DNA from: Bilabrum cf. latius | Taxonomy: Eukaryota | Length of the DNA: 64,000 nt | Reading direction: 5' to 3' | Assembly: GCA_965178125.1 (NCBI GenBank) | Contig: OZ237756.1 | Coordinates: 868,001-932,000 of the forward strand | Shown here: positions 4,094 through 63,452 of the stretch, one piece after another | Layout: each line of letters starts with the position of its first letter | Position numbering within the stretch: position 1 is the first letter of the stretch | The notes under the pieces: generated by a model | Database searches by the model: none | What the model saw: only the letters and a program-made list of their open reading frames with translations | What the model was told of the DNA's origin: nothing | Program-made: the position numbers and the translations under genes

Positions 4094-4768
4094 TTAATGG
4101 ATACACCTTGCGTCCTTGCAAGGGTGTACAACTAACCATTTCTTGAATATAGTTGAGAACGTCTCAATCGAACCCGCCGACCTTGATTCAACAGCAACCA
4201 AGTTACGGAGAGTGCCTGTGACAGCTTTTAGCAGATCTGGTTCTTCAAGCCACTGACCCATCTGGCGGTCAATACGGTACCACGTTGGATACACTCCAAA
4301 TACTTTGCAGTACCATGTGACAAAGTCGATGGTACTAGGGGTGTACCTCTTCGATTCTTGAGCGAAAACGTGTCTTTCTGTCTCTTGTATAAATAGACGA
4401 ACATGCTCTTCGGTCGGTGGCATGTACTCCTCGAGTGCAGGACTTGATCCACGGGTCCAATCCCGACCTTCGAAAGCTTTGCAGTAATGATCTTGTCCCC
4501 AAAATCCAAGTCCAGGGTTCAAGCTCCTGTACCGTTCGCACCATGATGCACTCATTGTGCGAAACTGCAATAACCCAGCCAGTTTAAAGGGTGAATGGTT
4601 GGCAATGTCGTATCTGTTGCGTACTCCAACTTTCCCCATCTGTGGCGCCGCGCAATACAGTTCCGGAACCGGTTCGTGGTCGGTCCAAATCTGGAATGCG
4701 ACACTGATCATTATGTGATATACACTCTTGCACCCATGTACAGTCCTCCCATACTCCCAAATGTCCAA
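4094..4768 (-). CDS. Hypothetical protein (about 220 aa, start uncertain), ends in TAA
   Basis: 224 open codons in AT-richer sequence with globular-looking composition; no family recognised. Confidence 0.45.
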   Translation of the reverse strand: MDIWEYGRTVHGCKSVYHIMISVAFQIWTDHEPVPELYCAAPQMGKVGVRNRYDIANHSPFKLAGLLQFRTMSASWCERYRSLNPGLGFWGQDHYCKAFEGRDWTRGSSPALEEYMPPTEEHVRLFIQETERHVFAQESKRYTPSTIDFVTWYCKVFGVYPTWYRIDRQMGQWLEEPDLLKAVTGTLRNLVAVESRSAGSIETFSTIFKKWLVVHPCKDARCIH

Positions 4769-7700
4769 TCACTAATGTGGGACATGATGCTCACCGACCG
4801 GCCTAGGCACGACACCCCCCTCTATTGGCCAGACCGCCATCCCATCGCTAGTTGTATCACTACATACAAGATAGCGCAATCGCACGGCGCTACCAGCATC
4901 TCCTCCCACCGCACCCCCTCGAGATCCCCCACCCACCACAGCCCTCTCTACAGCCCCAGCCACCGCCCCGGGCACCTGCAGCCCAGCGAGGAACAGACCC
5001 CGGGCCTCCCCATAGGCAGAGCTCCCTGCCCACCCAGCAGCCGCATGCCCTCCGCCCCACGTAGCATCGTACGCGGCAATCTCACCCAAAAGTGCACGCT
5101 ACTTAGCAACATCCCCAGCCCGCTCCGCCGCCCACAGCTCCTCCTCCAAGGCCCCCCTGGTCCGGCCGTAGTCCACACCCAGTGCTGTTGCGGCCGCCCG
5201 GCGGGCCCGGGACACAGCCCCGAGGTACAGGCCTTGCGCACTGCACTGCAGCGCATTCAGGACAGAGGCATCACCATTGTTCCCTAAATTGTTGTTCGCG
5301 TTGCTCCACACGATGGCACCGACCCGCGGCTCCACCGCCCCCTCGTCCCCGCAGAACGTGACCTAAACTCTCCGCTGTTCCCCAGCCGCGCCACCAAGCT
5401 CCGACCCCACCCCCACCCCCACCCCCACCCCCACCGCCCTCCCGAGATCGTCCATCCGCCCAGCCACAGCGTCATCCAGCACGCCTCCACCCCTGGGCCC
5501 CAGCCCGGCCATCCGCGCCAGCCGCTGCACCCAGGGGTCCATGCCAGGGCCAGATCCAGCTTCGTTGTTCCCCGAAAACGAACCTTCGCTCGGCATGAGA
5601 AGGCTCGTCGCCTGCACAGCGTCGTCCAACACGCGCCCCGTCGCATTGCTGAGGCTAGCGGGTGTGGCCCCCTGGCACAGCGAGGCGGGGGCGGGCAGGA
5701 TCAGCTAAACGGGGCACGACATGCGCGGCGCCATCGCACGCAGTGCGGAACCACCCGGCCCGTCCAGGACGCTTTGTTGCGTGTACTGAGCCCTCAGCAT
5801 TAAATCGGACAGCTGGCCCTTCCTGTCCTCTATCCCAGAGGTGGAGGACAGCCGGTCGATTGTGGCGCTCACGTGCATCTGCCCCACCGCCCTCGCCCCC
5901 TTGTGCGCGAGACCCTGAGGATCCAGCACCGGCACTCGCTTGAGGTCCTCCAGCAGCGTCTTATAGTGGGGAAACAGACTCGCCGCCCTGGGCAGGTCGA
6001 GCCAAAGGGACTGCACAGGCAGGGGCCGGGTCCTTGGCCAGCAGAGCACGACCCCAGCGGGCCACATGCCGCTCTTGCTGCTCTTGCTGCTCTTGCCGCT
6101 CTTGATGCTCTTGCTGCTCTTGCCGCTCTTGCTGCTGTTGTTAGGTTCCCTCTTTGCGGCCCATGCCGACTCCGACTCATACTCCTGCTCCTACTGATTG
6201 CTCGGCTCCATCCTCCCCGCATCCTCCTTTGACTTGTCTTTGTGTTCCCCCAGCAGACCCGCCAGCAGCAGCGCCCCCCAGGCGTCATACCTCTCTCCCA
6301 CCACCACCACGGGCCCTCCCACCCCCAGCGCCCTGCATGCATCCAGCCCGTCCTGGGCCTTGGCGTAGAGCCCCCCCGTGCGCAGGTGGAGGGAGCGGTA
6401 GGCCGCGGACTGCCGCACCGCAGTGCGCTGCACTTCGTCGGCTTCCTCGGCTTCGGCTCCGGTGAGGAGAGCTCGCGGAACCTTCCTGGGAATATTCCGG
6501 GCAAGTTCCGCGAGTCGCACGGCAGCCTGGTACCCCTCCAGCGATGGACCCCTTAATGAGGCGGTGAATGAGGTTGAGGTACCTGCGGATGATGCCTCAT
6601 CGACCGGAGCTGCTGCGGCTGCCCTGTCGTGGTCACCCGCTGAGTCTGATTGCGCGTCGAATTGTTTCACCGGTAGATCTGGCCCACCATCTGTGCCACC
6701 CGTCAGGTCAACTATGCCAATGCTCTTCCTCCTCCTCTTCTGCCTCGTCTCTTCTGTTCGCATGGGCTGCTGTGGGGCAGGGTAGGACGGCCGAAATCCG
6801 GAATTCGAGTCCGGCTCCGAGTCCCCAGGGAGCGGAGAGGTAGCACGAGCGAATTCCGAGCGGTCCATCGGTGGATTCACGCCTGCTTTGGCCACCCCCG
6901 CACCGTCACCCCCATCACCACCACGCCCCGAGGAAGACCAGATGCCCCTACCCATGGCCCGGCTGGCCCCCGCTCTGCTCCCCCCTCTCATCTCCCTCTC
7001 TCCCTCCACCTCACCCGTTCTGTGGAGCCCTTCCGCCGATTGGCCGTGCAGTGCGATGCACCTAAAACCGCGCGCCACCAGATCCGCCTGCACCAGCCCC
7101 CACACCGCCGCCGACTCCCCATCCCCCGCCAGCAGAACCGCCGTGGCAACGGGTATCGATCCCGGGTCCGAAGCGCTACCTGGCCCGGCATCCATCGCTA
7201 CCACGTGCCGCCTGGGCCGAAGCACAGGCCTCCTGGGCCGACTCGGAGCCAGAAACAAATCGTCCAGCCCGTCCTCATTGGACGCTACAGCATCTCCCTG
7301 CTCTCCTGCATGGGCAGAAGCAGCAACGGAGCCGGTTGTTGTGCCCCATCCGAACACGCTCTATCGGACACCCGCATTGGCACCACCACCGGCATTGCAT
7401 CTCATTGAGTGCTCCCATGCCGCTCGCTTGCTGGACCCAGGCAAACCAGGGGGCACCACTGCCGCTGGCCTGCCCAGCCTGCTGCAATACTCGTCATCCT
7501 GAGCCGGCGTGCGCCACCCGGCGCCGCGCAACTTGCGGAACCTGGTGCTCTGCCGCTCCGTGTGCACCTCGATGGCCCCGTCGCTGCGGGCGAGCAGGTC
7601 GTACCTGGTTGCAACCGCTCTCTAGGCTCCCGTCGCGCGGCGCCTCAGGATTCGGAGCTGCCTGGTGGCCAGCGGAACCGCGTCTTCCTCTTCCTTGTCG

Positions 7701-7840
7701 TCCAGGAAGGCGAGGCCCAGCAAGGAGGCCAAGAGTGAAAGGCCCACTGCAGCGAGAAACAGTATGAGGTTGTAGCGCTGGCTGTCTTGCCGCTCCTGCG
7801 ATGCACAGAGTGGGAAAAGGGGTGTCAGAACAGCCTTCAT
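4769..7840 (-). CDS. Hypothetical ~1020-aa protein with an N-terminal hydrophobic anchor
   Basis: Seven ORF-track fragments share one frame, broken only by TAG (7622, 7361, 6191, 5705, 5363, 5099, 4772); the first TGA is at 4769. TM-like LILFLAAVGLSLLASLLGLAFL. The true start may be on an upstream exon. Confidence 0.65.
6069..6136. repeat. 9-bp coding tandem repeat encoding (SKS/GKS)n
   Basis: gctcttgct-type units, about 7 copies, in frame with the 4769..7840 gene. Confidence 0.8.
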
Positions 7841-8470
7841 TTCGCAAATACATACTCCATTCGGTTAAAACCATGCGCATTAACATTCGGCTAATGCTGC
7901 AAGCAGATGTAGCATCCAGTGTCTTACCCAGTCCTGCAGTGGCTTTTGCATCTCCATCTCCCGTATAGCTAGCTAACGCTCGCTTGCAGTCGTTGCTAAT
8001 ACCCCATCGGTCTACTGAGCAGATGCAAGTGTGACCTCTGTTGCGCCGGATCGATCTGCAGACTGTAGCGCGCTTGCTCCCTGCCGCTACCGTCGCGCAA
8101 TCTCAGCCCGCATAGACGCAAGTTTACGCTGGTTCTCAGTCGTTGGTACAACTTTGGTAGATGATTTGTCCAATACCTATTTATCTGATGTTGAATCGTC
8201 TCGTTTGCTGGCAAAATATCGCTTGGAGATTTGCTGTCTCCATTTCTTCCATTGGGTCAACTAGTAGCGGCAGCAAATGCGCTGTACCACATGCTTAGTG
8301 ACTGAATAAGTATTTCTCTGCATCCAACTTAGGTTCACAGCGAGTGAGTTAGCTGTTAAGCCGACAACTGTGTGTCTGGTTCCGCTGCACTCGTCACTTC
8401 AACACTTCCTGGAAATTGTCGTGACAGAATTGCAGTTTCGCCAAATGAGAGAAACTACAGATAATTTGTA

Positions 8471-14975: not shown

Positions 14976-15042
14976 TAAGGATGGCTACATCCAATCGTGG
15001 GTAGTATGCTCAGCCTGTCCAATCTAGTACCTTACATGACTC

Positions 15043-18000
15043 TCAGATGACGTTATACTGCTTTAGGCCAACAGATCTCACTGCAACAGTCTACAGCACC
15101 CATGCTGCACGCTCAGCCTCCTTGGCATTGCTCGTCCTCAGGAGTGCCATCAGCCCAGGCAGTGCGCCTGCATCCACCACGGCCTGCCTTCGGTCCTCCG
15201 ATCCGAGAGCGATGTTCCCAAGTGCCAACGCAGCATACTCGGCCTCCTTGCCCTTGCCCGACTCAAGAAGGCCCACCAGCCCAGGCAGTGCGCCTGCATC
15301 CACCACGGCCTGCCTTCGGTCCTCCGATCCGAGAGCGATGTTTTTAAGCGCCCCTGCAGCATACTCGGCCTCCTTGCCCTTGCTCGACCTCAGGAGTCCT
15401 ACCAGCCCAGGCAGTGCGCCTGCATCCACCACGGCCTGCCTTCGGTCCTCCGATCCAAGAGCGATGCATTTAAGCGCCCCTGCAGCATACTTGGCCTCCT
15501 TGCCCTTGCCCGACCCAAGAAGGCCCACAAGCCCAGGTAGTGCACCTGCATCCACCACGGCCTGCTATTGGCCATCAGATCCCGCTGCGACAGTCTACAG
15601 CACCCATGCTGCACGCTCAGCCTCCTTGGCCTTACCCGAGCCAAGAAGGCCCACCAGCCCAGGCAGTGCGCCCACATCCAACACAGCCTGCATTTGGCCT
15701 TCAGATCCGAGAGCGATGTTCCCAAGTGCCAAAGCAGCATACTCAGCCTCCTTGCCCTTGCCCGACTCAAGAAGGCCCACTAGCCCAGGCAGCGCACCTG
15801 TATTCACCACGGCCTGCCTTCGGTCCTCCGATCCAAGAGCGATGTTTTTAAGCGCCCCTGCAGCATACTCGGCCTCCTTGCCCTTGCTCGACCTCAGGAG
15901 TCCAACCAGCCCAAGCAGCGCTCCTGCATCTATTACGGCCTGTTTTCGGTCCTCCGATCCACTAACGATAGTCCACAGTGCACCTGCAGCATACTCGGCC
16001 TCCTTGCCCTTGCTCGACCTCAAGAGACCCACAAGCCGAGGTAGTGCACCTTCATCCATCACGGCCTGTTTTCGGCCTTCCGATCCAAGAGCGACAGTCT
16101 ACAGCGCCCCCGCAGCTCGCTCGGCCTGCTTACCCTTGTCGGATACCAGCAGGTCCACAAGCCGAGGCAGCGCACCAGCATCCACGAATCGGGTTCGTGC
16201 TTGGTCGCTCCCGTAGCACGTTTGCCAGACTACAAATGCCGCCGTTTCTGCAGTCATGCCGTCTTCAGAACTCAGTCTCTTCACGATTCTCTCCAGCTCG
16301 CCGTTGTTCGATAGAATGTAATCTACAATGCCAGTCCGAATATCATCCTCCCAATGCTGAGCATTGGCATCGCATTTACCGCGGCTAGGGATTCCCTCGA
16401 TTCGCAGATGCTACAGCACACGGTTCACCCCATCCCAGTCCCCATTCGATTTCAGCTCCTCGGCCAATTCCCTGCTTCTACTTACCGCTGGCTCGCACTC
16501 AGCACCACCAGCAGGTAAATCAGGCAGCAGAGTACTGGTGTCAGCGTTTTCAGCAATAGCTGCACTAGTGTTGGCCATTGCAAGCGTGCTCTCAATGGAT
16601 GACCCGAGTTCGGCCAATGTGACAGGAGAACTGCCACGCGTGTTCGAGCCGAGCTGTTTCGGAAGGAGCGGACCAAGAAACAACAGGCCACACGCGAACA
16701 GCAAGGTTGAGATGGCAGCGCACCAGCGCACTCTCGTCTGTGTGCCTGCTGGCGGTGCTGGCGGTGCTGGCGGTGCTGGCGGTGCTGGCGGTGCTGGCGG
16801 TGCTGGCGGTGCTGGCGGTGCTGGCGGTGCTGGCGGTGCTGACGGTACGGATCGCACCGAAGTCGTGGGAGGCACCGGCGAGAGAGGTCTATCAGATCGC
16901 AGCACACGCACCGCCTCCTCAACATCCATCCTGTCATCAGGGTCGATACACAGTAGGCCACGCACCATGTCGGCATACCACCCAGGACGATTGGACATCA
17001 TGCCGCGACCATCCATGGTAGCACCGCATGACTGCAGTGTAACTGCCAGCTACCCAGGCCTGGGCGTGCTCCCATCCTGCAGCTCACCAGGATACGAGTC
17101 GCCGAACGGGTGCTGCCCTCCCGTGGCCAGCTCGTGCAACAGCACACCCAGCTCCCATGATGCCTACTTCCCAAATGGTACCTCGGCTGTGTCGTCTCCT
17201 GCCGCCCCCCTGTTCCACCCGTCCAGCACCTCAGGGGCCAGGTGGGCCTGGTTGCCGCCCAGCCCGTCACCGGTTGCCCGGAGATATCTGAAGGTGACCT
17301 GATTCAGTGCCTCCTGGACACGGGCGGATGCAGGCAGAGTGGTTGCCCCACCAGCGGCCGAAGCTGCAGCAGAGATAGCTGAGGATGCTACATCTCCATC
17401 TGCATGCACGCGCAGCGAGCACCCGAAGTCGATCAGCACCGCCCGACCCACGCCCTCCGGACCCCCCTTCGAGTCCCACATCACGTTGTCCAGCTTCAGG
17501 TCACGGTGCACCACCCCGTGCTGCAGCAGGTGATGCACGCCATCCGCGATGTCGCTGGACAACTGCACAAGCACATCGTCAGGCATGGACCCCGGCTCAT
17601 CTCCTTCCACGATTTCCAAATGGTCGCACATGCGCCTCTGCAGCAGCTCCATGCCCACCATCTGGGCCTTGCGGGGCCGCAGAGGGGTGGCACCAGCGGA
17701 TGGTATGCCTTCTCTTGCATCATCATCATCATCGTCGCCACCGTCAATACACACCAGCCTTGCCTCAGACAGCCTGAGGGTCTTCACCATCCACAGGGGC
17801 GGCTCGCGGACGCACTCGAATAGGACGCGAGCCACGTTGCGGTGCTCGGGTAGGCGAGTGAGCACATCGAACTCTTTCTGGGAATCGATGGTTTCGACCT
17901 TTGACGTGGTCAGACCGTAATTGAATACAGTCTTGACTGCGATGTAGTCAAACGCTGGTGCACCATCGCTGGCCCCGGCATCTGTGGCACTTGCGGGAAT

Positions 18001-18225
18001 CGCCACTCTGTAGACAGCACCGAATCCGCCGCGCCCCAGCAAGACTCTCCCCCTTGCAGGTTTTACGCATTGAGCACACAGAATCATTGAAAATTGACGA
18101 CGCTGTACCGTGGTACCAGATTGTGTCATACGATATACCTCAATCACGCTCGCGGGAAGCTGGGGAGCGGGCATTAGCCAGGGATCGCTCTCACCGGCGC
18201 TACTGACAGGACCAATTGATGACAT
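15043..18225 (-). CDS. Kinase-ARM paralog A: PINK1-like Ser/Thr kinase + (APP)n + putative TM + ~9 armadillo repeats
   Basis: Motifs LGRGGFGAVY, IAVK, HRDLKLDNVM, LIDFG, GGNQAHLAPEVL, then 42-aa ARM repeats (AVVDAGALPGLVGLL..AAGALxNIA). Single frame with TAG at 17164, 17050, 16411, 16099, 15595, 15565 and 15091; first TGA at 15043. Confidence 0.85.
15060..16200. repeat. 126-bp ARM-coding tandem repeats with a 504-bp higher-order unit
   Basis: Near-identical 126-bp units; equivalent TAGs recur at 15091, 15595 and 16099 (spacing 504 = 4x126). Confidence 0.9.
16747..16840. repeat. 9-bp tandem repeat (tgctggcgg)x~10 encoding (APP)n
   Basis: Perfect array visible in the sequence; absent from paralog B. 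Confidence 0.95.
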
Positions 18226-18389
18226 TAGAAACAATACTGTGAACTACGATTTCCTTTGGAGCACTCCGGAGTTCAGCAAGAAACCAGGACCGAAATATGC
18301 AACTCTACTCCAGACCAGACCTGCTCCAGACTGGACAATCACGATTTTATCACAATTGCACGTCACAATGCTTTAGTAGTTTTTGCGGC

Positions 18390-18876
18390 AACTTACCGGT
18401 GGGACCGCTCGTCGTGGAGGATTGGCAGCGACTGGCAAGAGGGGTCTGCTTTGCGGGCCGCGCATGCCACGAAGCTGGCCACTGGCAGCTACGGCAGGCC
18501 CGTCGACCTCGGAGCGCTCGGCGTCCGGATCGGAGGAGAAGACAAGTGGTGTCCTGGGACCGTGAGGACGCAGAAAGGGGCGGTACTCAGTGGCGTGCGG
18601 GTCGTACCCTTTGTGGTGGACGTGTTGGGGGGGATCGGGGAGAAGTCGGTCGAGTTCCTGTAGGTGCTCGATAAGCTGCGGAAGAAGAGGTAGGAGGACA
18701 AAGGGCGGCGGGTTTCGACTCGTCCGGCCAACGCGCGCCTCTCGTGGTCTTCTGTGGCAAAGGCTCGCCTCTCCGTTGCCGCCTAGCACTAGCAAAAGTG
18801 GACATGGTGGACGGGGTGGATGAAGCGGGAGGCGCAGACAGGGCAGGAATGTGGGAAGGGGGCGGTGGGGACCTGA
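18390..18876 (+). mobile_element. Probable 3' fragment of a non-LTR retrotransposon (restriction-like endonuclease C-terminus)
   Basis: GSALRAAHATKLATGSY...VVPFVVDVLGGIGEKSVEFL*VLDKL...ARLSVAA*H resembles the RLE tail (AxxAxxxKxxxY...FxPxVVExxGGxGxxAxxFL...RLSVAxQxxN). No RT is present; it lies antisense between the two kinase paralogs. Confidence 0.5.
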
Positions 18877-19100
18877 GGGGTTCATGGGTTACGATTGGTG
18901 CTATAAGGAGACAGAGTCTGACTCATCGGATTCGTTGTTGACGTCAAATGAGATGATAAGCGTCTGTGCGATGAGGCACCAGCAGAGGGCACTCGTGCGA
19001 CAGAATCACCATGTATCCGAGTCCTCGCGGTAACCCAATCAATTAAATCCATGATATCACTAGCACGGCACACTGCTGGCCACCACCCAGGCCGTGCACA

Positions 19101-22100
19101 TCACTCTATACCTAATGCTTCCAGAGCCGTTCTTGCCTTCTCCGATTCAGGGCCCTAGGCAGAGCTCCTTAGAATGCCGCGTGGACGGATGCCGCCTGCA
19201 TAGACCAGCGGGCCACTCGTCACACGCGATCTTGATTTTCGCGGTTTCCCAAAGTCCCGCAGTCGCCTCAGAGGGGCCACTGCACCTGCATCCACAATGG
19301 CCTGCTTCAGCAGGCCATGAGATCCTTTCGCAATACTACGGAGTGTCCACGCCGCGTGCATGGCTTCATCATCTTTACTCGAGCTTAGCAGGTTCACCAG
19401 CCTGGGCAGCGCACCTGCATCCACAACGGCCTGCTTCGTACGATCCGACCAACTGGCAGCGTTGCGCAGCGCCGCCGCCGCCGCCTCAGTGCCACGGCCC
19501 TTGTCCGATCTCAGCAGCCCAACCAGTCCAGGCAGTGCACCTGCGTCCATCACAGCTTGGACCAGCTCCTCCGATCCAGTAGCGATGTTCGCAAATGCAA
19601 ACGCCGCATTCCCAGCCTCGTTGCCCTTGTCCGATCCCAGCAAGACTACCAGCCCATGCAGAGCACCGGTGCCTACCACGGTCTACTTTAGCTCGCGCGG
19701 CCCCTTAGAAATCCTAGACATCGCCGCGGCCGCGTACTCAGCCTCGATTTCTCTCTCCGACCTCAGAAGGCCCACCAGCCCAGGCAGCGCACCTGCATTC
19801 ACAACGGCCGTTTTGAGGCCATCCGACCCAAGAAGAATATGCGCTAGTACTCCCAAGGCAGGCCCAGGCCTAGCTGCATGGTCAGCATCCGACCCCAGCA
19901 AGCCCACAAGACCAGGCAGCGCACCTGCATCTACGATAGCCTGCTTCAGGACGTCTCGCCCGGCAGCAATGTTCTGTAGCGCCCATGCCGCATTTTCGGC
20001 TTTGTCGCTGGTGGCCGACCCCAGCAAGCCCACAAGACCAGGCAGCGCACCTGCATCTACGATAGCCTGCTTCAGGACGTCTCGCCCGGCAGCGATATTC
20101 CGCAACACCTAGGCCGCATTTTCGGCTTTGTCGCTGGTGGTCGACCCCAGCAAGCCCACAAGACCAGGCAGCGCACCTGCACTCACGATGGCCAGCTTCA
20201 GGACGTCTGGCCCGGCAGCGATATTCCGCAACACCTAGGCCGCATTTTCGGCTTTGTCGCTGGTGGTCGACCCCAGCAAGCCCACAAGACCAGGCAGCGC
20301 ACCTGCACTCACGATGGCCTGCTTCAGGACGTCTGGCCCCGCAGCGATATTCCGCAACACCTAGGCCGCATTTTCGGCTTTGTCGCTGGTGGTCGACCCC
20401 AGCAAGCCCACAAGACCAGGCAGCGCACCTGCACTCACGATGGCCTGCTTCAGGACGTCTGGCCCCGCAGCGATATTCCGCACTGCCTTTGCCGCATTCT
20501 CGGCCTCCTTGCCCTTGTCCCATGATAGAAGGCTTACCAGCCCAGGCAGCGCACCTGCATCCACAAACATGCTCTGGGAAGCAGAATCTAAGGACGTCTG
20601 CCACACGATAAATGCCCCTATCAGTGCATCCGTTTCACGCTCTGTCCCGAGGCTCTCTGCTATCCTCTATATCTCGCCAGGATCGCACAGCACGTGCTTT
20701 TCGACATTGCTGCGGATTTCATTCAACAGCTGCTTTGAGACACCAGGCAACTGATCGGTCGAACGGATGCCCGACTCCACCCGCAGCTGCCAAAGCACTC
20801 GGTACACCCCATCCCAGTCCCCCTTTGATTGCAGTCCATCCACCAGCGCCCTGATCCTGACCACCGCTGATTCGCACTCCTCGCCCCCAGCAAGCAACGC
20901 AGGCAGCATGGCGCGGACGTCAGTATCTGGTCGAGTCCCCCTCTTGGATGTCCCACCAGATCGCAGCACACGCACCGCCTCCTCAACATCCATCCTGTCA
21001 TCAGGGTCGATACAAAGCAGCTCATGGACCATTATGATGTACCACCCCGGGCGCTTCAGCAATACATCATGATTTACAAATGGAGCCACACATGCATGCA
21101 ATGCAGCTGCCAGCTCTCCTGGTTTAGTCTTGGTGCCCTCCTGCAGTTCAGCAGGGTACGAGTCCCCAAACGGGTGCTTCCCTCCAGTGGCCAGCTCGTA
21201 CAGCAGCACACCAAGCGCCCATGAGGCTTGCTTCCCAAATGGTACCTCGGCTGTGTCGTCTCCTGCCGCCCCCCTGTTCCACCCGTCCAGCACCTCAGGG
21301 GCCAGATGGGCCTGGTTGCCGCCCAGCCCGGCACCGCCATACTTCAGCTCCCGGTACGTGACCAGGTCCAGCGCATCCTACACAGCGGATGCTTGCGGCG
21401 TATCAGCACCACTGGCTGTAGCAGCAGCGGGGTCGGCTGATACAGCAGCTCCATCTGCATGCACGCGCAGCGAGCACCCCAAGTCGATCAGCACCGCACG
21501 ACCCACGCCCTCCGGACCCCCCTTCGAGTCCCACATCACGTTGTCCAGCTTCAGGTCACGGTGCACCACCCCGTGCTGCAGCAGGTGATGCACGCCATCC
21601 GCGATGTCGCTGGACAACTGCACAAGCACATCGTCAGGCATGGACCCCGGCTCATCTCCTTCCATTGCCTGCAAATGGTCGCACATGCGCCTCTGCAGCA
21701 GCTCCATGCCCACCATCTGGGCCTTGCGGGGCCGCAAGGGGGCGGCGCCATCGGACGGTACACCTTCTCCGCCATCGGCATCATCGCCGTCAGTGTCAAT
21801 GCACACCAAACTCGGATCAGGCATCATCTCCACCATCCACAGGGGAGGCTCACACACGCACTCGAATAGGACACGAACCAAGTTGCGGTGCTCGGGTAGG
21901 CGAGCGAGCACATCGAACTCTTTCTGGGAATCGATGGTTTCGAGCTTAGAAGTGGACATAGCCCAGTTGAAAACGGTCTTGACTGCAATTTGATCGGTAT
22001 CTGGTTGCGCCTCCCCCGTTGAATCGCCTCTTTCTTGTGAAATTGCAGCGCGAAAGACGGTACGCTACCCTGCTCGCCAAAGTGTCACAGGTTCACCAGC

Positions 22101-22292
22101 TGGCTTCTCGCACATATCAACTATATGTTTGCCTTGCTATCGTCTCTGTTCGGTAGTCCCTGATTTTGTTATGCTGTAGACCTCGATCACGCTGGGAGGC
22201 AGCTTGGGTGGAACTTCCTGTAGCCTTGGCTCGCTTGTTGAATCTCCACCTTCGCCTGCCCCACTAGCCGGTGGCGATCCAGAAGAGTACAT
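19101..22292 (-). CDS. Kinase-ARM paralog B: PINK1-like kinase with degenerate Gly-loop + ~10 armadillo repeats
   Basis: Single frame from ATG 22292 to TGA 19101 with TAG at 22137, 22065, 21378, 20667, 20361, 20235, 20109, 19683 and 19155. The kinase core is nearly identical in DNA to paralog A; the Gly-loop reads LWRAG*RTVF and DFG is DLG. Confidence 0.85.
19270..20570. repeat. 126-bp ARM-coding tandem repeats
   Basis: Units at ~19890..20490 are almost identical (TAGs at 20109, 20235 and 20361 are spaced exactly 126 bp). Confidence 0.9.
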
Positions 22293-38208: not shown

Positions 38209-38373
38209 ATCTTAAATAGGGGAAATATTTGAGTTGTTAGGAGGTGGCCATCAGTGCAACAGGCCTCTGCACCGTGTGTGATTTCGTGCCCCAAAACACA
38301 CGATAAATTGCATGCTACTATATCTATCCTAGAATCTATGTCCAAATTCAAACCCACTCGCTACACGTGCTCA

Positions 38374-44300: not shown

Positions 44301-47300
44301 ACGGGAGATTCAGGTCGTCCACGAAGATGAGCATCTTCCTGCCTGTGGGAGGGCCGAAGGTCCTGCCCGAGCGCTTGTCGATGGAGGAATCCAGCTGGAC
44401 CTGGAGCGCCTTCGAGTCCATGAAGTAGTTCGCGTTGATGACCTTGGTGTCGAAGTGGTCAGGCACCCCGTTCGTCAGGTAGTTCTTCACGAGAGTGGAC
44501 TTGCCTGTCCCCGCCGTGCCCACCAGCATCACGGGGTGGCCCTGCTGCACCACACGGTCCATGAGAGTAGACACCCGCACCGAGTCCACCGTCTGCACGG
44601 TGATACGGTCGAAGGGCCGCTCGTCCGCAGACACGCCGATGGGCACGTGCACGTACTTCTCCACCTTTTCCGCCCAGGGCCGGAACTCGTGCTCCTCCTT
44701 GTTGTAGTAGAAATCGAAGCACAGCGCGTCCTCCACGCCCTCATACCCCTTGGGGAACTTGACGTTGGGCGCGGCCATCTCGCACAACAGGTCGTGGAAT
44801 GCCTTGCGGTAGTCCCCGGCCACCCCCTTGGTCTTGTCGACCGTCAGGGCGCCGCCGAAGGACCAGGCCATCGCCAGCACGAAGCAGTGCTCGATATCCT
44901 CGGGGGTCGGCTCGGACTCGGCATCCCAGTCCGACAGGAACGAGTCCATGTAGCGGGTCACGCTCGCCACGCCGGAGATCATCACAACGGGAGTGATGGT
45001 CTTGTACCTCCTGCGCACCTCGTCGGCTGTCCTCTCGATGTACTTGTCGAAGAGGCCAGGCAGGTGGGCACGCTCCACCTCGCGCTCCCTCTTCTGCACC
45101 CACGAGTCCACCATGGGCCTCCACCCCACGTCCGACTCGTTGATGTACAGGATGCCCGCTCGCGATACAGTGGCGGGCGTCGCGTTGGCCAGCGAGTCGA
45201 TCTCGAAGAGCATCCTCATGGCGTCTGACAGCGGCACGCGCTCGTTTGACACGAGCGTCAGCACCTTGTTGTCGTCCATCACAGTGTTCATCGACTCGAT
45301 CCACTCGGCGTCGATGTCGCCGTCCAGCACGCACCACTTGTGCTCCTGGTACGAGTGGAAGCCCAGGTCGCGCGTGTTGCGGCTCATGCCTCGCATTACG
45401 ATGGTCAGGCAGCCCTCCTTCCAGTCCTTGGCCAAGGTCATGTACCCGTACAGCTCGTTGGAGGTCACGGCCTTGGGATTGAACCGCTCGTAGATGCAGG
45501 GCTTCTGCCTCGTCTTGCCCACGTTCTTGGAGTTGGCGAGGGTCCGCCACACCTCGGTCTTGCCCGAGCCCGCGATCCCCAGCACCATCACCGAATGCCT
45601 CACGTCCAGCAGCTCCTGGAACTGCACGACCTTCTTGATGAAGTCGCTGTCGGCCTGCAGGCCCCACTCCACGGCGGCGGCCTCGGCCTCGCTCTGCACC
45701 TTGGTGTCGAACTTGGGCTCGATCTGGTAGTACTTGGGGAACAGATCCTGCACCAGCCGCTTGAAGATGGGCAGGTCGGCCAGCGGCATCTTGGGGGTAT
45801 TGAAGTCGCGGAGTGCCCTCATCAGCACGCCGTCCTCGGGGACGTCAGGCTCGCCTCGCTTGAGACCGCCCGCCACCCGCAGCACAGACTTCATGGACCG
45901 CAGTCCCCAATCGTAGTGGGCCTGCTTGGACAGCAGCTCGGACGACAGGTCGTACAGCGTGACCATCTTGATCGACAGGGGCCGAGCGTTGGCGAAGCCC
46001 TCCGCCATGAGCATGTTCTCGGCGATCAGCGCAAAGTCGGGCCGGATCATGGCACATGACCGGAACAGGGCCTTGAGGTTCTCGGGGAGCTCCGTGCGGC
46101 CGGCGTACCCGGGGTTCATGGTGATGAACATGCCCACCGTGGGGATGAGCGTCACTGTGTCGCCCTGCAGCTCGAAGCTGCCGATGGTCACGGGCGGGGA
46201 GCCAGCGGGCAGGTGCTGGTACTCCTCCGGGCGGTTGGCGGGGTTCGCGAGCAGCTTGACTGCGTCCAGCACCTGCTTGACCTGAGTCGACACCACGGAC
46301 AGCACCTCGATGGAGATGCGGTTGAACTCGTCGAAGCAGCCCCAGGCGCCCACCTGCGCGAGGCCCTTGAAGATGTCGGCCAGGCCCTGGTAATTCATCT
46401 GGTCCGAGCAGTTGAACACGTAGCAGGGCAGAGACAGGGCACGCGCGAGATCCTTCGTGGTCTCCGTCTTGCCGGTACCGGCGGGCCCCGCGGGGGCGCC
46501 GCCCAGCATCAGGCGAAGTGCCATGGTCAGCGTGATGTAGCACCTGTCGGTCAGCGGGGTGATCACCAGCCTGCCCGTGTTGCCCACCCACTCGTAAAAG
46601 TACTTGGACCTGAAATCGGTAATCCGGATGTTGACATCCATGGTCTCGGCCTGCCAGTAGTTGCGCAGCTGCTGCACCCACAGAAAGTTCTCCGGGCTGT
46701 CTGCCTTCTACGCAATGAGGTTGCGCACCACGTCGCGGTTGTGCACGTCCATCGTGATCATAGTGATGATCTTGACTCGCAGCGCCTTGGGCAGCTTGGT
46801 CAGCACGCGGGCGATCAGCGCGTCGAGTCTCTTGATGCAGACCCCGAGGTAAGTCTTCACGGCCATCTCCTGCCCCTGCTCCAGCTCGTCAAGCGCCCGC
46901 TCCGTCTCCTCCGTCCAGTAGATCTGCGCGGCGGTAAGCGCCAACTGGGCCGGGTAACCTTCCAGCCACACGTGCCTGGGCTTGGAGGCATCCGTGTCCC
47001 AGTTCACTGCCGTCTCCTGGGCGTCGTGCAAGATGTGCTTGAGGGTGTTGCGCTGCATCTCGGTGAGGTCGTTCAGCCAGTTCTCCACGGCACCCTGGAT
47101 GACGAAGGGCTTGTAGAACTTTACCTTCTCTCCGTCCTTGGCCGTCATCTCCAGGGCCACGTTTGGGATGGCGCCCTCCTCGGCGGGGGGCTCGAAGGTG
47201 ATCTCCTTGATGGCGTCGTAGCAGTCGCCCAGGAAGGGTACCACCTTGGGCGGGTTGCTGCCGTTGGACAGCGTCGTGAGGAGAGCCTCCGAGGACATAA

Positions 47301-50300
47301 AGTAGAACCGCGGGAACTTCTTCTTCTTCATGTCCAGGTAGTCCTTGAGGCTCTTCTGGCACAGCTCCAGCGAGCCCTGCATGTTCTTGAGGCTCTCGAA
47401 CCGGCCCTCCTTGTTGGCGCTCTCCACTGCGTTGGGAGTCTCCACTGCCTGCTTCATCAGCTCCTTGAACTCTGAGTCCACGCCGGAGAAGCGCTTCGTG
47501 TCCTCTGGCAGGGACATCTGGATGTCCTCGGACTCCATGAAGATGACCTCGAGATCCGCCCAGGACTTGGTCACGCTGCTCCACACCTTGAGCGTCTCGT
47601 CCAGCTTGGTCATGTTGCCGTCCCACTCGTCGATCCGCCCCGAGAAGTGCTCCGCGAACTTGCCCATGCCCTTGATGGTCTGCAGCTCCATCTGGTCGTT
47701 CTCGAGCTGCTCGAGCAGCTCCTCCGAGGGCCGGATGAGCCGCACCTCCGTGTCCTTGTGCTGCGCGAAATCGATCGTGAGCGTGTCCCAGTTCTCCTTG
47801 ATCTTGTCCAGCTTGCGCTCGATCTTGGCCTGCTTCTCGGCCGTCTCCACCACGTCTGCCACGTCCACGGCGTGCCTGTGCAGCTGCAGGTCGAAGATCG
47901 TCTCCAGCGAGAAGTTGGGGTCGTGCCTGTCCAGCTTGTCCACACCGCAGATCTCCGCGAGCTTGCCCCAGTGCCTGTCCCTCATGTAGTTCGAGTGCAG
48001 GTCGTTGATCAGCGGCAGCGTCTCGGTCATGTTCTTGATCCTGTTCTCGATTGTCTTGAACACCTTGTAGGCCCGGATCATGGGGTCGGCATCGCCCATC
48101 TTCTTGAGGTAGTCCTTGAGCTTCTTGTTCCTGTCCTCCAGCTCCTCGGTGTTGACCTCCATCCACAGCGTCTGCTCCCAGTCCTCGTACGTCTTGAGAA
48201 TAGCCCCTTGCAGGTCCCACAGCCGCTTGAGCTGGCCCAGCTCCGCCCTCGTGTCGGCGAACTCCTTGAACGGGTGCACCGGCAGCTCGAACAGCTCCAC
48301 CAGCCGGTTCAGCTGCTCGGCGCCCTCCTCCAGCGTCCTGAGGCGCCCGAAGTACTTGTCCAGCAGGGCGTACGCATCGTCGACCGCCCCCTCGAAGCTG
48401 AAGGGGGCCTCCTTCCTGAACTCGTGCCTGAAAGCCCTCACCTGCTGGAAGTACTCCTCCGCCTGGATCTTGACGTTCTTGGTCTCCTCCGTCTGCATCT
48501 GAAAGATGGACTCCTTCTTGGTGAAGGCCCTCGCCGTGGTGTCGCTGAACTTGATGGGGGCCTCTTCCAGGTAGTCGATGACCCTCTTCTCATCCCCCTT
48601 GGCGTGCTCATCCACCACTAGCTCATCCACGGGCCGGCCGTGGGACTTGAGGAGGGCAAGCGTCCGCTTGATGGGCTCGAAGAGGGCCTTGCGCTTCTCC
48701 ATCGACACGTTCACGCTCCTGATGTGCTGCATCACCGTACGCAGAGGGGTCTTGTCGTCCTGCTCGGGGCTCACCTCGATGGCGAGGCCCTCGTTCACGG
48801 AGGCCATAAAGTCGCGCAGCTCCCGCAGCTGGTCCACCACGAGCTGCTCCAAGTGCGACGCGAACACGTTGGACCACCTGCTCAGCGCCTGGGCGATGGC
48901 CAGCTTGGCCGGCTCGGTGTTGATGCGGACCCACCCAAGGTCCAGCGGGGAGGGCATGCGGGCCACCTTGCCCTGCATGGCATGCAGCTCAGTGAGGGCA
49001 GCGTCGTACTGGTCTAGGTCGGGCAGCTCCAGACGGGTCTGCACCCCCTGCGCCACCTCCTCCTGCTCGCCCTCGCCGTCGTCACCGTCCTCCTTGCCCT
49101 CGCCCGCGCCATCGGCACCCTTGCCCCCCTCCTCGGACACGTCGATCACCACCACGGCCTCCTTGCGGAACCGCTCGAATGCCTCGCTGGGGTCCTGCTC
49201 CCACACCCAGCGCAGCTTCTCGTAATCGGCGCGGAGAGAGCCAGTCTCCTCCTCCGTCTTCCTCAGCTGCTCGTTGATGCGGGCCAGCAGCATCTGCACC
49301 TCCACGTCACCCATCATCTCGCGCACGTACTTGCCGTCCGAGTCGTCGAGCCGCTTCACCTGGGCGGCGGCCTGGTAGAATGACTCCACCCAGCCGTTGA
49401 CGATGGACCAGATAGTGGCGCGCTTGCGCTCCTCCTCGCCCTCGCCGTCAGCGGCCCCCGCCTCACCGTCCCTCGGCATCATGCCCGCCGCCTTGAGGAG
49501 TGCCCTCTGCAGCTGCTTCTCCTCGTCCATCTCCTCCTCCTCAAGCACGTCGGGGTCGAAGCGCACCAGGGGCACGCGCCTCACGTCGGGCCTGTCCTCC
49601 TCGTCGCCCCCGCCGGCTCCATACCCCGCCGTGCCGGCCTCCCCGCTCGCCTCCTTCTTCGCCAGCTCCTCCACCTCACCGGGAGTCGCCACCCGCAGCA
49701 TGGCGGCCAGCGGGTCCGCCCTCGCGGCAGAGGCCCTCCGATCCGCAGTGGCCTCGATGAGCGCAGCGTCGTCGTCCACCTTGAGCTTGAGGACCAGCAT
49801 GGGCTGGATGCCGTTCTTCTTGATGTAGGCCGCGTCCAGCTGCTGGGCGAGGTGCTGCAGCGAGAAGAGGACCAGCTTGGAGAGGCCCCGCACCACGATG
49901 CCGTTCACGAAGTCCACGTACGCCACCCAGTTGGGGTGCGTCTTGGAGACGGACATGAGGCCGTGGGAGGCCTTGAGCGTCTTGTCGATCTCCACGCCGT
50001 CCTGCTTGAGCTTCTAAAAGCGGGCGGTGCGGGAGGTCTTGTACACGGTCTCAAACTCCTTGGGTCCAACCGGCTTGGTCTTGCGCTCCAGGAGAGGCGT
50101 CTCCAGCCAGCGGCTCAGCACGGCAGCCACGGCATCCAGGTTCCTCTTGAGGTCAAAGAGCTGCGTGTGCGTGTCCCTGACGACGGCCTGCACGTCCTCC
50201 ACGAACGCGTCGATGCCCTGGGACTTCCAGGTGAGGTCGTGCAGGCCCTTCTGCATGGCCTGGTCGATCTTCTGGATCTGTTGCCGGAGCAGGGGGGCCT

Positions 50301-52833
50301 CCACGGGGAGCATCTCCTGCATCATCTGGTTGTACCGGTGCACCATGAGCTCCAGGGCGCCCGTCTGCTTGCGGAAGGTCTTGGCGTTCTGGTAGATGTC
50401 CAGGGCCTGCTGGGGCACGTCCAGGTCCAGCAGCAAGAAGTACTTGACCTCACGCAGCAGCCGGGTCAGCGCCGGGTCGAAGTTCACGCTCAGCAGCCGC
50501 TGCTCGATGGGATCACCACCGGCGCCGCCGCTCGCCGCCCCACCCTCCTCGTCGGCGGGGTCGTGCCCTCCCCTCCTCAGCCCCCTGACCAGCAGCGGCA
50601 GCAAAAGCTTCTTCTCCGATGTGTCCTCCAGGTCCGCGCTCCACTCCTCGATGCGGGCCCGCTCGAAGTCGTCGAGCGACGCCATGATCGTCGCGAAGAC
50701 CTTGGCCACCTCCTTGGCCTCCTCCCGCTCCATCACGGCGGGGCCCAGCTCCCTCACCTTGGCCATGGGCACCATGATCCTCTCCTTGAGGCCGCGGCAC
50801 CACGTGAGCGCGCCCGCGATGGGCGGCATGTTGCGAGGGACCGGGGGCGCGTCCCTCTCGGTGAGGAAGATCTCCTGCACGCGCTTGAGGTCCGCTCCTT
50901 GCTGATGCACCAGCGCGATGTGCTTGCGCTCCAGCTCGTCCTGAATCACGGGCCTCTCGAGGAGCGCATCGAACGAGTCGAGCACCTTGAAGCGGCCCAT
51001 CACTGTGGCCTGGCTCTCGAACCCCTGGGTCAAGATGGCGGCCAGCCTCCTCTCGAGCTCCCTAAAGGCGGTCCGGAGGGCGTAGTAATCGTCGTCGAAG
51101 GCGGACTCCTCCACCTGCAGGATGTCGTACTTGACCTCCTTGAAGGCGTTCACGGCCGCGTCGAAATCGGCCCGGATGGCCAGCACCGCGGCCTCCAGGG
51201 CGGCGCCCTTGCTGCCACCGATCTCCACCTTCTCCAGCTTGCGGAACTTCTGGATGGCCTCGGTCATCTCGAGAACGTCGTGGCAGCGCTCCACGAACGC
51301 GTCCAGCCGCAGGAAGAGCGCGTTGCTCTGGATGCGCCATGGGTTGTCGGGGCACTCGGCGTTGGCAGTGGCCTTGTAGTCATCGTACGTCCTCTTGAGC
51401 GCGTCGCACACGCCCAGGACCTCCTTGAGCTGAGCAATGGCCTGGCCCTCCGATGCGCTGTCGATGGCCTCGAAGACCGCCTGCCCGTTCACGTGCTCCA
51501 GAGCCGCGTTGATGACCGCGTTGCAGATCATGCGCACGAGGACCACCAGCCTCGCCGGGGAGTTGTAGTACCTCGAGTTCTTCCAGATGAGCAGCACCAC
51601 GTGCAGGATGGGCCTGAAGAGGCGATCGAGCTCCTTGAATTCCTGCGGCGAGGACAGCTTCTGGAACCAAGACTCGAGGGTCCGGAGGTACTTGAGGTTG
51701 TCGTTGGCCTCGGCGCGGGCGGCGAACACCTCCCTGCAGAGCTTGGCGAAGGGGGTACAGTAGGTAGACCGCGACACGTCCAGGAACTGCAGCACTCGCC
51801 TGACCCTCTCGGACTGCAGCTGGTCAAACACGGCGTTGAGGTGGGAGGCCTTGGTCCTCCAGAAGGCGATCTCCGCGTCGGGCGTGGGGTGCGCGCCGCC
51901 CTTGAGCATCTGCTCCGGTTCCTGCCGGAGCACCCCCTTGATCTGCTTGGTCCATGTGACGATTGCGCCCTCCAGCAGGTGCACCTTGTCCTTGGTCGAC
52001 AGGCCGCCCGAGCCCGAGCCCGCGCCCCCTGCGGAACCGGCCCCGCTCGCGGCGCCGCCCTGGTCCAGCACGGGCAAGGGCAGAGCCACCTCTCCCTTGG
52101 TGTGTCCCACCGTCACCGCCACGTGGGCCAGGAAGCTCTGCAGCTTGTCCACGAGCTCCCTCGATGCCACGTCCCCCCAGCCCTTCTGGTTGGAGGGATT
52201 GGTGAGCAGGGGCAGGTAGACGTCCCTGACCACCCTATCGAGGTGCTGGAGGGCATCCGCGGTGAGGTCGTGGCATGTGATGAGTGCGGATGGGTCCTCC
52301 TTATCCACTGGGCCGGCCTGCCCCTTGAGGAAGTAGACCAGCTTGCCGCCCTTGGGAAGCCGCTTCGGGACATCAAGAGCGGTGGTCATGCTGTCAGAAT
52401 ACACGAGGAGCAGGCGCTTTTCAGAGTCCTCCATGAACTGGTCCACGCGCTCCTGCGTCTCGGGGTCCCTCCATCCCTTCTCAAACTTGTCGGGCTGCGG
52501 GATATCAACACACGCAGGCAATCGGGGGGCTCAGTTTCGCGCAGCGATGAATAATTCAGGGAAGCAAGCGACAAGCCAAGGCACTACATCTGAGTAATAT
52601 ACATAATATGGTCACCAGGTCCTTGTAGCTACCGCTGGTTCTGCAACGCCGGAGTGCTTCACACCTAGCCGTTGTAGCACCTTGCACCAGCAAGACGCAC
52701 ACCAAGCAACTCGCGAAGAGAGCAGAGAGCACCTACTAAAGTAGTAACTTACTTTCAAATGCTTATATGCGGTCTTTAGCCTCTGCTCAAGCCATGACTT
52801 GCGGGGATCTGTCTTGGATTCCTCCTCGGCCAT
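38374..52833 (-). CDS. ODA4: Axonemal outer-arm dynein beta-type heavy chain (DNAH9/11/17, ODA4 class), ~4730 aa; intron 52495..52752
   Basis: Complete tail, linker, AAA1-6, stalk and C-terminal domain, with P-loops GPAGTGKT, GIAGSGKT, GTAGTGKS and GVGGSGKQ. All ORF-track pieces share one frame, split only by TAG at 50014, 46708, 43489, 41269, 40636 and 39769; ends TGA TGA. The subtype is an inference from motif memory. Confidence 0.95.
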
Positions 52834-53071
52834 TGTCTCGTCTCCGTCTCAATCACCAGGTGGTTTATAGAGCTGAGAAGCCCAGCTGATGAATCTCAGT
52901 AATCACAAGTAAAGATTGCGAAGAGACTGTAAGTTAGCTACCGGCAGATGCGGCAGCAAACTCGATTAAGGAATCGTCCAGCCGTTTGTCGAATTGTCTG
53001 ATATTTGGAGCTGGTAACGTGCCATAGTATCAACCGGGCGGATCCATGACGATCCGGTGCCTATTTACGAT

Positions 53072-54400
53072 ATGCGGATCATTCTCCCTCGCATATTGCA
53101 TAATCCATTATGGAATAGTGTAATATGTTTCTGTGCAGGCACAGTATGCGCGGCGGGGGCAGCCTTGGTCGGATACTACGCACTATCGCGGTCGAGAAAT
53201 AGAGAGCTCACCCTTTATGATGATGTTCGTGATTTACTTTACTTGAAATCACAAAAAAATGCGCTGGATTCCTCACTGAAATCACTTCCCATCAACATAT
53301 TGGACATCATGATGGCGGGCGCGCGCATCTTTAAATACACCAACCGGACGAGGATCGCGACTTCGAGGACGATGGATAAGCTGGCCTGCATGGCTACGAG
53401 TGCACCTCCAGAGCCCGAGCAATCAGTGCCCCGTCGCGTGCTTTTCAAGTGCGAGTGCTTCTAGCGGAGCGGGTCCTTCAAGTTCCGCGGGGCAACCAAC
53501 GCGGTCCTCTCGCTGAGTGACGAGCAGGCCAAAAAGGGGGTCGTCACGCATTCCTCCGGGAATCACGCCCAGGCCCTGGCCCTCGCAGCCAAGCAGCGAG
53601 GCATACCGGCATACATCGTCATGCCGCGCACGGCCCCAGCCATCAAGCAGAGGGCCGTGAGAGGCTACGGAGCCGAGGTGACGCTGTGCGACCCGAGCAA
53701 CGAGGCCAGGGAACAAGCGGCGCAGGAGGTCGCAAAGCGCACGGGTGCGTTTCTCGTGCACCCCTCCAACGAGCCCATGGTCATGGCGGGCCAGGGAACA
53801 ATGGCCATCGAGCTGCTCGCCTAGGCACGGGAGGAGCTGGGCTCTCCCAGCGACGGGGGGCCAATCCTGGATGCGGTGATCGTGCCAGTGGGCGGGGGCG
53901 GGATGCTATCGGGGGTGGCCGTGGCGCTGCGAACCGTAGACCCCAGAATACGAGTCATCGCAGCGGAGCCCGAGGGCGCTGACGATGCCTATCGATCGCT
54001 TGCTGCAGGTGCCCTGCAGGCCCACAGGGAGGGGCACCCGGACACTGTGGCAGACGGGCTCAAGACGACCCTGGGCAGCAACACGTGGCCCGTGGTGAGG
54101 GATCTGGTGGACCGCGTGGTGCTGGTATCGGAGGAGCAAATCAAGGAGGCGGTGAGGCTCGTGTGGGAGCGGATGAAGCTGGCGGTGGAGCCCAGCGCGG
54201 GGGTGGGTGTGGCGGCTCTGATGAGCGAGGAGGTGAGGGGGATTGCGCGACTGCGACGCATCGGGGTGATCTTGTGCGGGGGCAACGCGGATGTGGGCAA
54301 GGTGGGTGCCTGGCTGTCGGAAGGCAATGAGGCGGGGAGCGATGGCGCAGCAGAAGAGGCGGGGGCGGCTCCTGGTGGGGCGGGGGCGGAGGAGACTTGA
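53072..54400 (+). CDS. SRR: Serine racemase / serine-threonine dehydratase (PLP fold type II); start uncertain
   Basis: FKCECF*RSGSFKFRGA (PLP lysine motif), THSSGNHAQA, GQGTMAIELLA*, VPVGGGGMLSG, DTVADGL, VEPSAGV, ILCGGN. TAGs at 53462 and 53822; stop is TGA. Confidence 0.92.
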
Positions 54401-62503: not shown

Positions 62504-62796
62504 TCCGTTGCTTTAAAAACTCCGTTTTGAGATTTGTATGTCCTACGGATCCAGATACATCCGATATTGCACTCGATCCGGATTCCGGAGTCCAGAATGG
62601 ATCAGGTTTAGACCCCAGCCTGAGGGCCTGCTAAATCAATAGTTTCCTCTCGTCTACTGTGATTAATCAGCCTAAGATTCCCTTGTGCGCGTCTTTGCCC
62701 GCCCGTCTATGCCTTTCTGCCAGAATCATCAGGTTGGGTCACAAAACCCCTGGGCTACCGTCTGTGTTGCCTAGCATCGCGAGGTTTCCTCTGGCA

Positions 62797-63452
62797 TGAC
62801 CCCCTACAGTTGCTCTATCTGAAGCATCGGCTGCGACTGAGCCGCCACGACTGTACTGGCCGGTGTGCATGTGCCGGGCAGGGTCAGCTGTTCGTTCGCG
62901 AACGTTCAGCTGATACTGGCGTGATCTTGTGATCGTCCGGCGAGGTGTCATTCCGGTTCGAGTCTACACTGGGGAAAGAGAGAGATCAGCCCCTGCGCTT
63001 GACAGGACTAGCAAAGAAATACAGAAGCCGCCTTAGCCAGTAGCTTTTGTCTCTCCCACCCACCCAAGACTCGGCCAAGGGGGAGGCAGCCAAGAGGGCT
63101 GCCTGGGGATGTAGTGATTTGTGTGAATTGATTGACCCATTGGCAGGGAGTCGTTTCTCTGAGACGACGGGGCGCACCGGCCGTGCCGGCAGGGTTGCGG
63201 GCCAGTGGACCAGGTGACTCCGAGGCGGGAGCCCACCCCAGGTCCTGTGCCCCGTCGCTCTCTTTCTCAGCACCATTAACTGGTGGGTCTACACATTTGT
63301 TAATGAACTCCGAGCAAGCATTACAAGATCTGTCGCAGACTAAGCAGGACCTTACCTCTACTAACTTTGACGTGACCCCCCACAGTTGCTCTATCCGAAG
63401 AATCGGCTGCGACTGAGCCGCCACGACTGTACTGGCCGGTGTACATGCGCCG
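62797..63452. repeat. ~80-bp dispersed direct repeat (62797..62876 and 63373..63452)
   Basis: Both copies read tgacccc..acagttgctctatc.gaag.atcggctgcgactgagccgccacgactgtactggccggtgt.catg.gccg with few mismatches. Confidence 0.9.

Follow-up and report, generated by a model that had tools for sequence, protein, structure and literature searches.

Glutamine at UAG with UAA and UGA kept as stops: homology evidence on the nuclear code of a likely Cafeteria relative

Genes of the window and their ends

We analyzed a 64,000-nucleotide stretch of DNA (hereafter the window; contig OZ237756.1, positions 868,001 to 932,000, of the Bilabrum cf. latius assembly GCA_965178125.1), which is G000:C22:868001-932000 in the 48.6 Mb assembly of 111 contigs that we call G000. 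The subject of this report is the nuclear genetic code of its genes, in which TAG is, by homology, a sense codon for glutamine (Gln), and in which conserved C-termini point to TGA as the main stop and TAA as a true minority stop. In the window, which has a G+C content of ~61%, frames broken by TAG become full genes once TAG is read through, including a cullin, two kinase-ARM genes, a dynein, a serine racemase, a UAA-family transporter, and others, and TAG is found within Pfam domains of the window open reading frames (ORFs). The original prediction, made from the window, held that TAA and TAG are decoupled, with TGA as the dominant stop and TAA as a rare one that still terminates. When TAG is read through, the ends of the 17 accepted complete ORFs in the window are indeed mostly TGA (14) and otherwise TAA (3).

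A dynein heavy chain gene of 4,686 codons (38374-52434, minus strand) contains 197 CAG, 4 CAA, 6 TAG, and 0 TAA codons and ends in a TGA (38374-38376) that lies 5 codons past the end of the Dynein_C model. With a G+C content of 0.92 at third codon positions (GC3), this gene is too GC3-rich to test TAA alone. Conservation is weak at all six of its TAG sites, with Gln as the most frequent residue at a single one. TGA also ends a serine racemase-like (PALP) gene (53018-54400, plus strand), whose two TAGs (53462-53464 and 53822-53824) both stand opposite Gln in the best PDB match. Two kinase-ARM paralogues, assigned as ORFs with Pfam matches, likewise end in TGA; the first (15043-18372, minus strand) has 8 in-frame TAGs in its stop-to-stop frame and the second (19101-22328, minus strand) has 9. 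These paralogues stand in tandem (15043-22328), and related ARM repeats recur in a RING-domain frame at the right window edge. At the left edge, a cullin frame (3-3449, minus strand) enters a long tandem repeat rich in Ala, Gly, Thr, and Asp, which extends to the end of the window (window 1-1870) and carries 40 TAGs in one frame of the plus strand. An orphan ORF of 1,031 codons (4769-7864, minus strand) has TAG as its last sense codon, followed by TGA (4769-4771), and is the sole window site at which TAG might be taken for a former or second stop.

The three TAA ends lie where the original prediction placed them, at 4094-4096 (minus strand), 38206-38208 (plus strand), and 63321-63323 (minus strand), and its caution about these weak C-termini was justified. 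The first ends a frame of 224 residues (4094-4768, minus strand) with a GC3 of 0.49 and no significant Pfam match, which may be a non-gene and is weak evidence for TAA as a stop. The second ends a DUF3253 ORF supported by Pfam (37531-38208, plus strand) that contains five in-frame TAGs. Because an in-frame TGA follows 8 codons beyond, this TAA cannot tell a stop from read-through. Contigs from run X1, which are probably DNA (their RNA status is a guess), span 37510-38287 gaplessly and with no differing letters. The third is the first TAA of the RING-domain frame, which enters at the right window edge and contains one TAG (63321-63998, minus strand; ORF and Pfam). The tail of this frame is unconserved, a donor-like GTAAGG lies shortly upstream of its TAA, and this TAA may be intronic. 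Around the end of the RING gene are also an 88-base direct repeat with 91% identity (62789-62876 and 63365-63452) and an overlapping 253-codon frame (62948-63709, minus strand).

Absence of TAA from the domains of the window genes was rejected as a test, because the ORFs had been cut at TAA, which makes the argument circular, and because the dynein offers so few CAA codons for comparison. Moreover, GT-AG introns occur elsewhere in this genome (209, 92, and 256 bases in the gene for eRF1), so that an apparent stop may be intronic. Since the window TAAs are poor witnesses and apparent stops can be intronic, the claim was tested outside the window, in a genome sample consisting of two 100-kb blocks and loci retrieved by searches. 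The code tests excluded contig C95. The assembly holds two eukaryotic 18S types that are 77-83% alike, one at G000:C95:6099-7900 and the other in a ribosomal DNA array on C12, and C95, a contig of 17.9 kb, has a single 18S copy that probably belongs to a different organism. A further contig, G000:C111, is of mitochondrial type and carries a tRNA(TCA), consistent with the UGA=Trp assignment described for bicosoecid mitochondria.

TAG and TAA in conserved genes

The meaning of TAG was determined mainly from dyneins, for which 17 paralogue stretches and the window dynein were aligned with 40 of 120 homologues. The 17,542 well-aligned codons include 643 CAG, 59 CAA, 52 TAG, 0 TAA, and 0 TGA. For TAG, Gln was the best assignment (log-likelihood -8.7), followed by Glu (-70.1), and in columns conserved at 90% or more, Gln was faced by TAG in 10 of 17 cases, by CAG in 141 of 246, and by CAA in 12 of 16. 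These likelihoods and conserved columns reject Tyr, Leu, and Glu as meanings of TAG. The only other departure from table 1 was ATA, on a 2:2 tie; ATG still maps to Met, and no sense codon is clearly reassigned. The Gln assignment was also seen in other families: TAG encodes the Gln of the (A/G)GQE motif in 8 of 16 GTPase loci, and the column of the first TAG in eRF1 is Gln in 89 of 94 homologues. TAG accounts for 12.6% of Gln codons and is present in 42 of 47 long ORFs.

A census of stops at conserved C-termini, which the original prediction had proposed, gave 29 TGA, 8 TAA, and 0 TAG at 37 alignable ends in dyneins, prenylated GTPases, and eRF1. Adding 7 GTPases without the motif and 14 proteasome ends (all TGA; variable tails) gave 50 TGA, 8 TAA, and 0 TAG at 58 family ends; dynein locus L106 was not counted because it is a non-terminal exon. 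Together with the homology of TAG to Gln, these counts uphold the decoupling of the two codons, and the count of TAG as a terminal codon, 0 of 37 and 0 of 58 ends, is still compatible with its use by below about 5-8% of genes. The TAA ends fall where proteins of their families end. Sixteen dynein genes end 3-6 codons past the Dynein_C model (13 TGA, 3 TAA), and one of them ends QLDD-TAA where paralogues end ALDD-TGA and QLDD-TGA. Of the 27 GTPase ends that were read, 20 have a cysteine motif for prenylation at the C-terminus, with 16 TGA and 4 TAA; the four TAAs directly follow CVVS, CGC, CC, and CMIL. The eRF1 gene (G000:C35, L051) terminates DFI-TAA at the same point as Cafeteria eRF1, which ends DFI. 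Reading through TAA would add at least 5 foreign residues in 7 of these 8 cases.

Internal codons gave the same picture. The original prediction had reported no TAA in a conserved domain; its window version was partly circular, and the claim itself stands in the aligned dynein codons, where about 4.8 TAAs were expected in the pooled set and none was seen. A Markov coding model trained on 14 window genes was run on 848 kb of G000 loci (overlaps deduplicated; a non-random sample). Where 60 codons with a strong coding signal came before, their frame was still the best one past CAG in 2,677 of 3,207 cases, past CAA in 348 of 519, and past TAG in 251 of 366, compared to 2 of 25 for TAA and 8 of 159 for TGA. 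One TAA past which the frame continued (L050) looks antisense to another frame. Within 126 Pfam matches there are 77 TAGs, 3 TGAs, and 1 TAA; the TAA is intronic, and two TGAs within such matches are at C13:416403 and C29:39955. Three estimates of end usage put TAA at 7-14% and TGA at about 86-93%, in keeping with the rarity of TAA that had been claimed from the window.

These results bear on the ordinary table 6 code, under which TAA and TAG would both encode Gln and TAA would be rare since A-ending codons are avoided. The high share of TGA among gene ends, the scarcity of CAA relative to CAG in dyneins, and one orphan frame with an in-frame TAA (see below) are what such a code would give. 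By contrast, table 6 fails to account for the 8 alignable C-termini that end exactly at TAA, for the loss of coding signal after TAA like after TGA, and for a swap of stops in the eRF1 gene of a metagenome relative, L159 (92% protein and 82% DNA identity over 236 codons). L159 has TGA at the position of the G000 eRF1 TAA stop and TAG at one G000 CAG, which implies that L159 shares the code and that the two stops swap. The pattern that table 6 predicts is displayed by two other metagenome eRF1s, L215 and L219, which have internal TAA and TAG and end in TGA. Known table 6 users (Tetrahymena, hexamitids, ulvophytes) have TAG=Gln and TGA as main stop in common with G000; here TAA is terminal, and neither in-frame UAA at Gln sites nor, in the searches given below, a tRNA(UUA) was found. 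We regard table 6 as scarcely credible for this genome.

The tRNA(CUA) gene and eRF1

A tRNA that reads UAG, which the original prediction required, exists as one gene. An Rfam tRNA search with 48 matches placed a tRNA with anticodon CTA at G000:C23:907607-907679 (minus strand; 69.8 bits), single-copy and with a T-run downstream; separate Gln(TTG) and Gln(CTG) tRNA genes are also present. A tRNA(UUA), whose absence the original prediction had proposed to check, was found neither among the 63 of 780 candidates scored in the Rfam search nor in two anticodon-pattern searches (31 and 17 matches, none of them a TTA tRNA by ARAGORN). The tRNA(CUA) gene is an old, divergent one: it is identical at 48-50 of 75 positions to tRNAs of several isotypes, including 48 of 75 to the Gln(CTG) of the same genome. 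Its D stem is identical to that of Gln(TTG), and both have G73. Its D arm and anticodon stem are shared by 23 viral tRNAs, every one of them Gln(TTG), which weakens a pure tRNA-Tyr origin.

The acceptor stem is of another kind: 6 of its 7 pairs, C1-G72 included, match those of tRNA-Tyr from this genome. With the anticodon stem counted, the match to tRNA-Tyr is 10 of 12 pairs, the top of 362 comparisons between different isotypes. PMC9976931 gives C1-G72 and A73 as the eukaryotic Tyr determinants and G73, G2-C71, G10, U35, and A37 as the bacterial Gln set, and leaves the eukaryotic Gln set unlisted. The acceptor-end differences of tRNA(CUA) from tRNA-Tyr (G2-C71 and G73) go toward the bacterial Gln set. 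A Tyr-like acceptor on a Gln-like body may possibly have arisen by recombination or by convergence. Apart from these genes, there is a tRNA-like family that ARAGORN calls Met(CAT) (G000:C5:282086, C7:1154419, C3:1096994, C3:1133102, C9:698618, and C25:323122). Its resemblance is to tRNA-Pro(TGG), with which it shares up to 8 of 12 stem pairs. Position 37 is T in at least one copy, and the family may consist of tRNA-derived repeats.

A PF03463 search of the assembly found one eRF1 and pelota. The eRF1 was compared with 95 full-length homologues, using human numbering obtained from a -4 offset at the motifs. The original prediction had pointed to its domain 1 motifs, and inspection gave a divided answer: GTS, NIKS, and YxCxxxF are themselves intact (T32, E55, S70, Y125, C127, and F131 are unchanged), and changes surround the pocket. 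These include, among others, G29A, N30D (0/87 homologues), I35V, S60V (1/95), L69Q (6/95), N129S (4/95), and K130H (0/95); the Gln of L69Q is itself encoded by TAG. According to PMC4381064, E55, Y125, and N129 are linked to a third-position G, L69A is slightly UAG-biased, and N30A is neutral. Since many eRF1s that lack internal TAG also have L69Q, the strongest candidates are N129S/K130H and S60V. These substitutions suggest that this eRF1 no longer recognizes UAG; given the intact core motifs, the tRNA may instead compete with an eRF1 whose reading of UAG is weakened.

Weighing the code, its origin, and its relatives

We assign a probability of roughly 0.92 to a nuclear code in which UAG specifies Gln and UAA and UGA are stops, with TAA as the minority stop and TGA as the main one. 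Under this code, a single gene transcribed by RNA polymerase III would supply a tRNA whose CUA anticodon pairs with UAG and not with UAA. To judge from its Gln-type D and anticodon arms, G73, and U35, this tRNA is presumably charged by glutaminyl-tRNA synthetase. With no UUA-anticodon tRNA, UAA would remain free for eRF1, in which the changes listed above lie near the codon pocket and probably weaken the reading of UAG. The TGA:TAA ratio of about 6:1 is what would be expected at ~60% G+C, and TGA dominance is probably a G+C effect and not part of the recoding mechanism; TGA stop usage rises generally with G+C (PMC9348620). In-frame TAA at conserved Gln sites, a tRNA(UUA), and TAG-terminated genes, which the original prediction had named as contrary evidence, were seen in no conserved gene.

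Several observations weigh against this interpretation. Coverage of the Rfam tRNA search was limited, in that 63 of 780 candidates were scored, and the two anticodon patterns together would catch 29 of 32 known nuclear tRNAs. The tRNA(CUA) has C1-G72, the eukaryotic Tyr identity pair, although the codon data carry no Tyr signal. L69Q was rejected as a diagnostic cause, as it occurs in many metagenome eRF1s without internal TAG and in the 6 of 95 homologues mentioned above. In addition, TAG is mildly enriched near ORF ends: over the final 10 positions it accounts for 7 of the 24 codons for Gln, compared to its overall share of 12.6%.

This enrichment would fit a context-dependent code, in which TAG is Gln internally and still a stop near some mRNA ends through residual UAG activity of eRF1. 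The intact core motifs of eRF1 would also agree with it, as would the TAG-TGA end of ORF 4769-7864 and the 2 of 47 long ORFs in which TAG directly precedes the stop. However, TAG was found at none of the family ends, and in GTPase L137 a TAG stands 11 codons ahead of the stop, upstream of the CaaX motif. A further 115 ends have no TAG in their last five positions (0 in 575 codons) and show no depletion of it over the last 20 codons, where its 10 occurrences in 2,300 codons are a mild excess over the 18 in the preceding 9,200. Thus the hallmarks of context-dependent codes of the Condylostoma and Blastocrithidia type, terminal use and depletion before ends, were absent from these small samples, and we consider such a code very unlikely. 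The mild excess could come from tails that have taken in former TAG stops, or from a weaker codon bias.

The final counterexample concerns TAA. An orphan frame of 545 codons is open except for one in-frame TAA (G000:C2:428541-428543, or L295:942-944, with the frame beginning at L295:279), is membrane-protein-like, and is coding-like on both sides of the TAA. This case would be explained if TAA were mostly a stop with leaky or programmed read-through at a few sites. The TAA lies inside a 15-base GT..AG stretch, and this single case is explained equally well by such an intron, a nonsense allele, or an assembly error. A search for homologues of the frame found none by which to judge its TAA, and no decoding tRNA is known, so that we consider read-through improbable and retain UAA as a stop.

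The host is likely a member of the Bicosoecida and a relative of Cafeteria, a placement that rests on one gene. The nearest named eRF1 is that of Cafeteria roenbergensis (69%), whose nuclear code we take to be standard, and in single-gene eRF1 trees G000 groups with Cafeteria at moderate support (91/82 and 81/82). A metagenome contig of 1,310 bases, L201, carries the eRF1 (2-1300) of a further organism related to Cafeteria; it contains two in-frame TAGs, ends in TGA, and is strongly altered in domain 1. By comparison, its sister L195 has Gln at the second TAG site, uses TAG for none of its 18 Gln codons, and ends in TAA. A single clade of the TAG users G000, L159, P0001, and L201 was rejected by the approximately unbiased test (p-AU 0.0014), in which the group was named after the first tree and a standard code was assumed for L195 and P0004/7/8. 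L201 represents, on this one gene, either a second origin of UAG=Gln or an older shared one. N129S occurs in both the G000 and L201 clades and is absent from Cafeteria. A tentative and rather unlikely scenario is that two lineages of Cafeteria relatives, one comprising G000 and L159 and the other L201, captured UAG for Gln separately. N129S would have predisposed both, and in the G000 lineage tRNA(CUA) would be a chimera of a Tyr acceptor and a Gln body instead of a point mutant of tRNA-Gln(CUG). Among stramenopiles, this would be the first change to a nuclear code. If true, the dual capture would be a natural replicate of the split between UAG and UAA.

The code itself is known. According to Panek et al. 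(2017; PMC5304391), Iotanema spirale has the same assignments (UAG=Gln, UAA/UGA stop; the layout of the legacy NCBI table 15), with UAG at conserved Gln, never terminal, and no in-frame UAA, as here. Iotanema belongs to an unrelated lineage, the Fornicata, and uses UAA predominantly, whereas G000 is a Cafeteria-related stramenopile that uses TGA predominantly. The Iotanema eRF1 substitution T32G is absent from this eRF1, whose GTS is intact. For Iotanema no decoding tRNA gene was found and the tRNA was predicted, as a tRNA-Gln(CUG) mutant, whereas here the gene was found and is as divergent from Gln(CTG) as stated above. McGowan et al. (2024; PMC11687900) describe the phyllopharyngean ciliates Hartmannula sinica and Trochilia petrani, along with Protocruzia tuzeti, as also using only UAG for Gln. 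UAG contributes 18.5% of Gln codons in H. sinica and 31.8% in T. petrani, a minority as in G000. H. sinica has UAA at 91.9% of its stops and T. petrani has UGA at 13.1%, compared to the dominance of TGA here, and a suppressor tRNA gene was undetected in both species (PMC11687900), whereas tRNA(CUA) was found in G000. UAG is also split from UAA, with another amino acid, in the rhizarian exLh and phyllopharyngean TARA metagenome-assembled genomes (UAG=Leu) and in Scotinosphaera (UAG=Ser). The exLh eRF1 is altered at L69, as here, and UAA is preferred in exLh (56 vs 15) and in the metagenome-assembled genomes (96-98%), in contrast to TGA here.

In the literature searched, with subscription journals outside its coverage, we found no earlier report of a nuclear code change in a bicosoecid or other stramenopile. 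A Cafeteriaceae flagellate may already have been named as UAG=Gln, and priority is uncertain. Apparently new are the stramenopile lineage, the dominance of TGA, and the identified tRNA gene.

A change of meaning nearly always affects UAA and UAG jointly, and most of the few exceptions were described from transcriptomes or partial genomes in which the decoding tRNA was missing. In the present case, one 48.6 Mb assembly supplies the code, a single tRNA(CUA), and a single eRF1, which makes the question of how eRF1 drops UAG yet keeps UAA directly testable. Annotation under the standard code truncates genes of this lineage, as in P0019, which was cut at both its TAGs. Finally, a UAG-only code can run mainly on UGA, in contrast to the preference for UAA in the compared cases with stop-usage figures.

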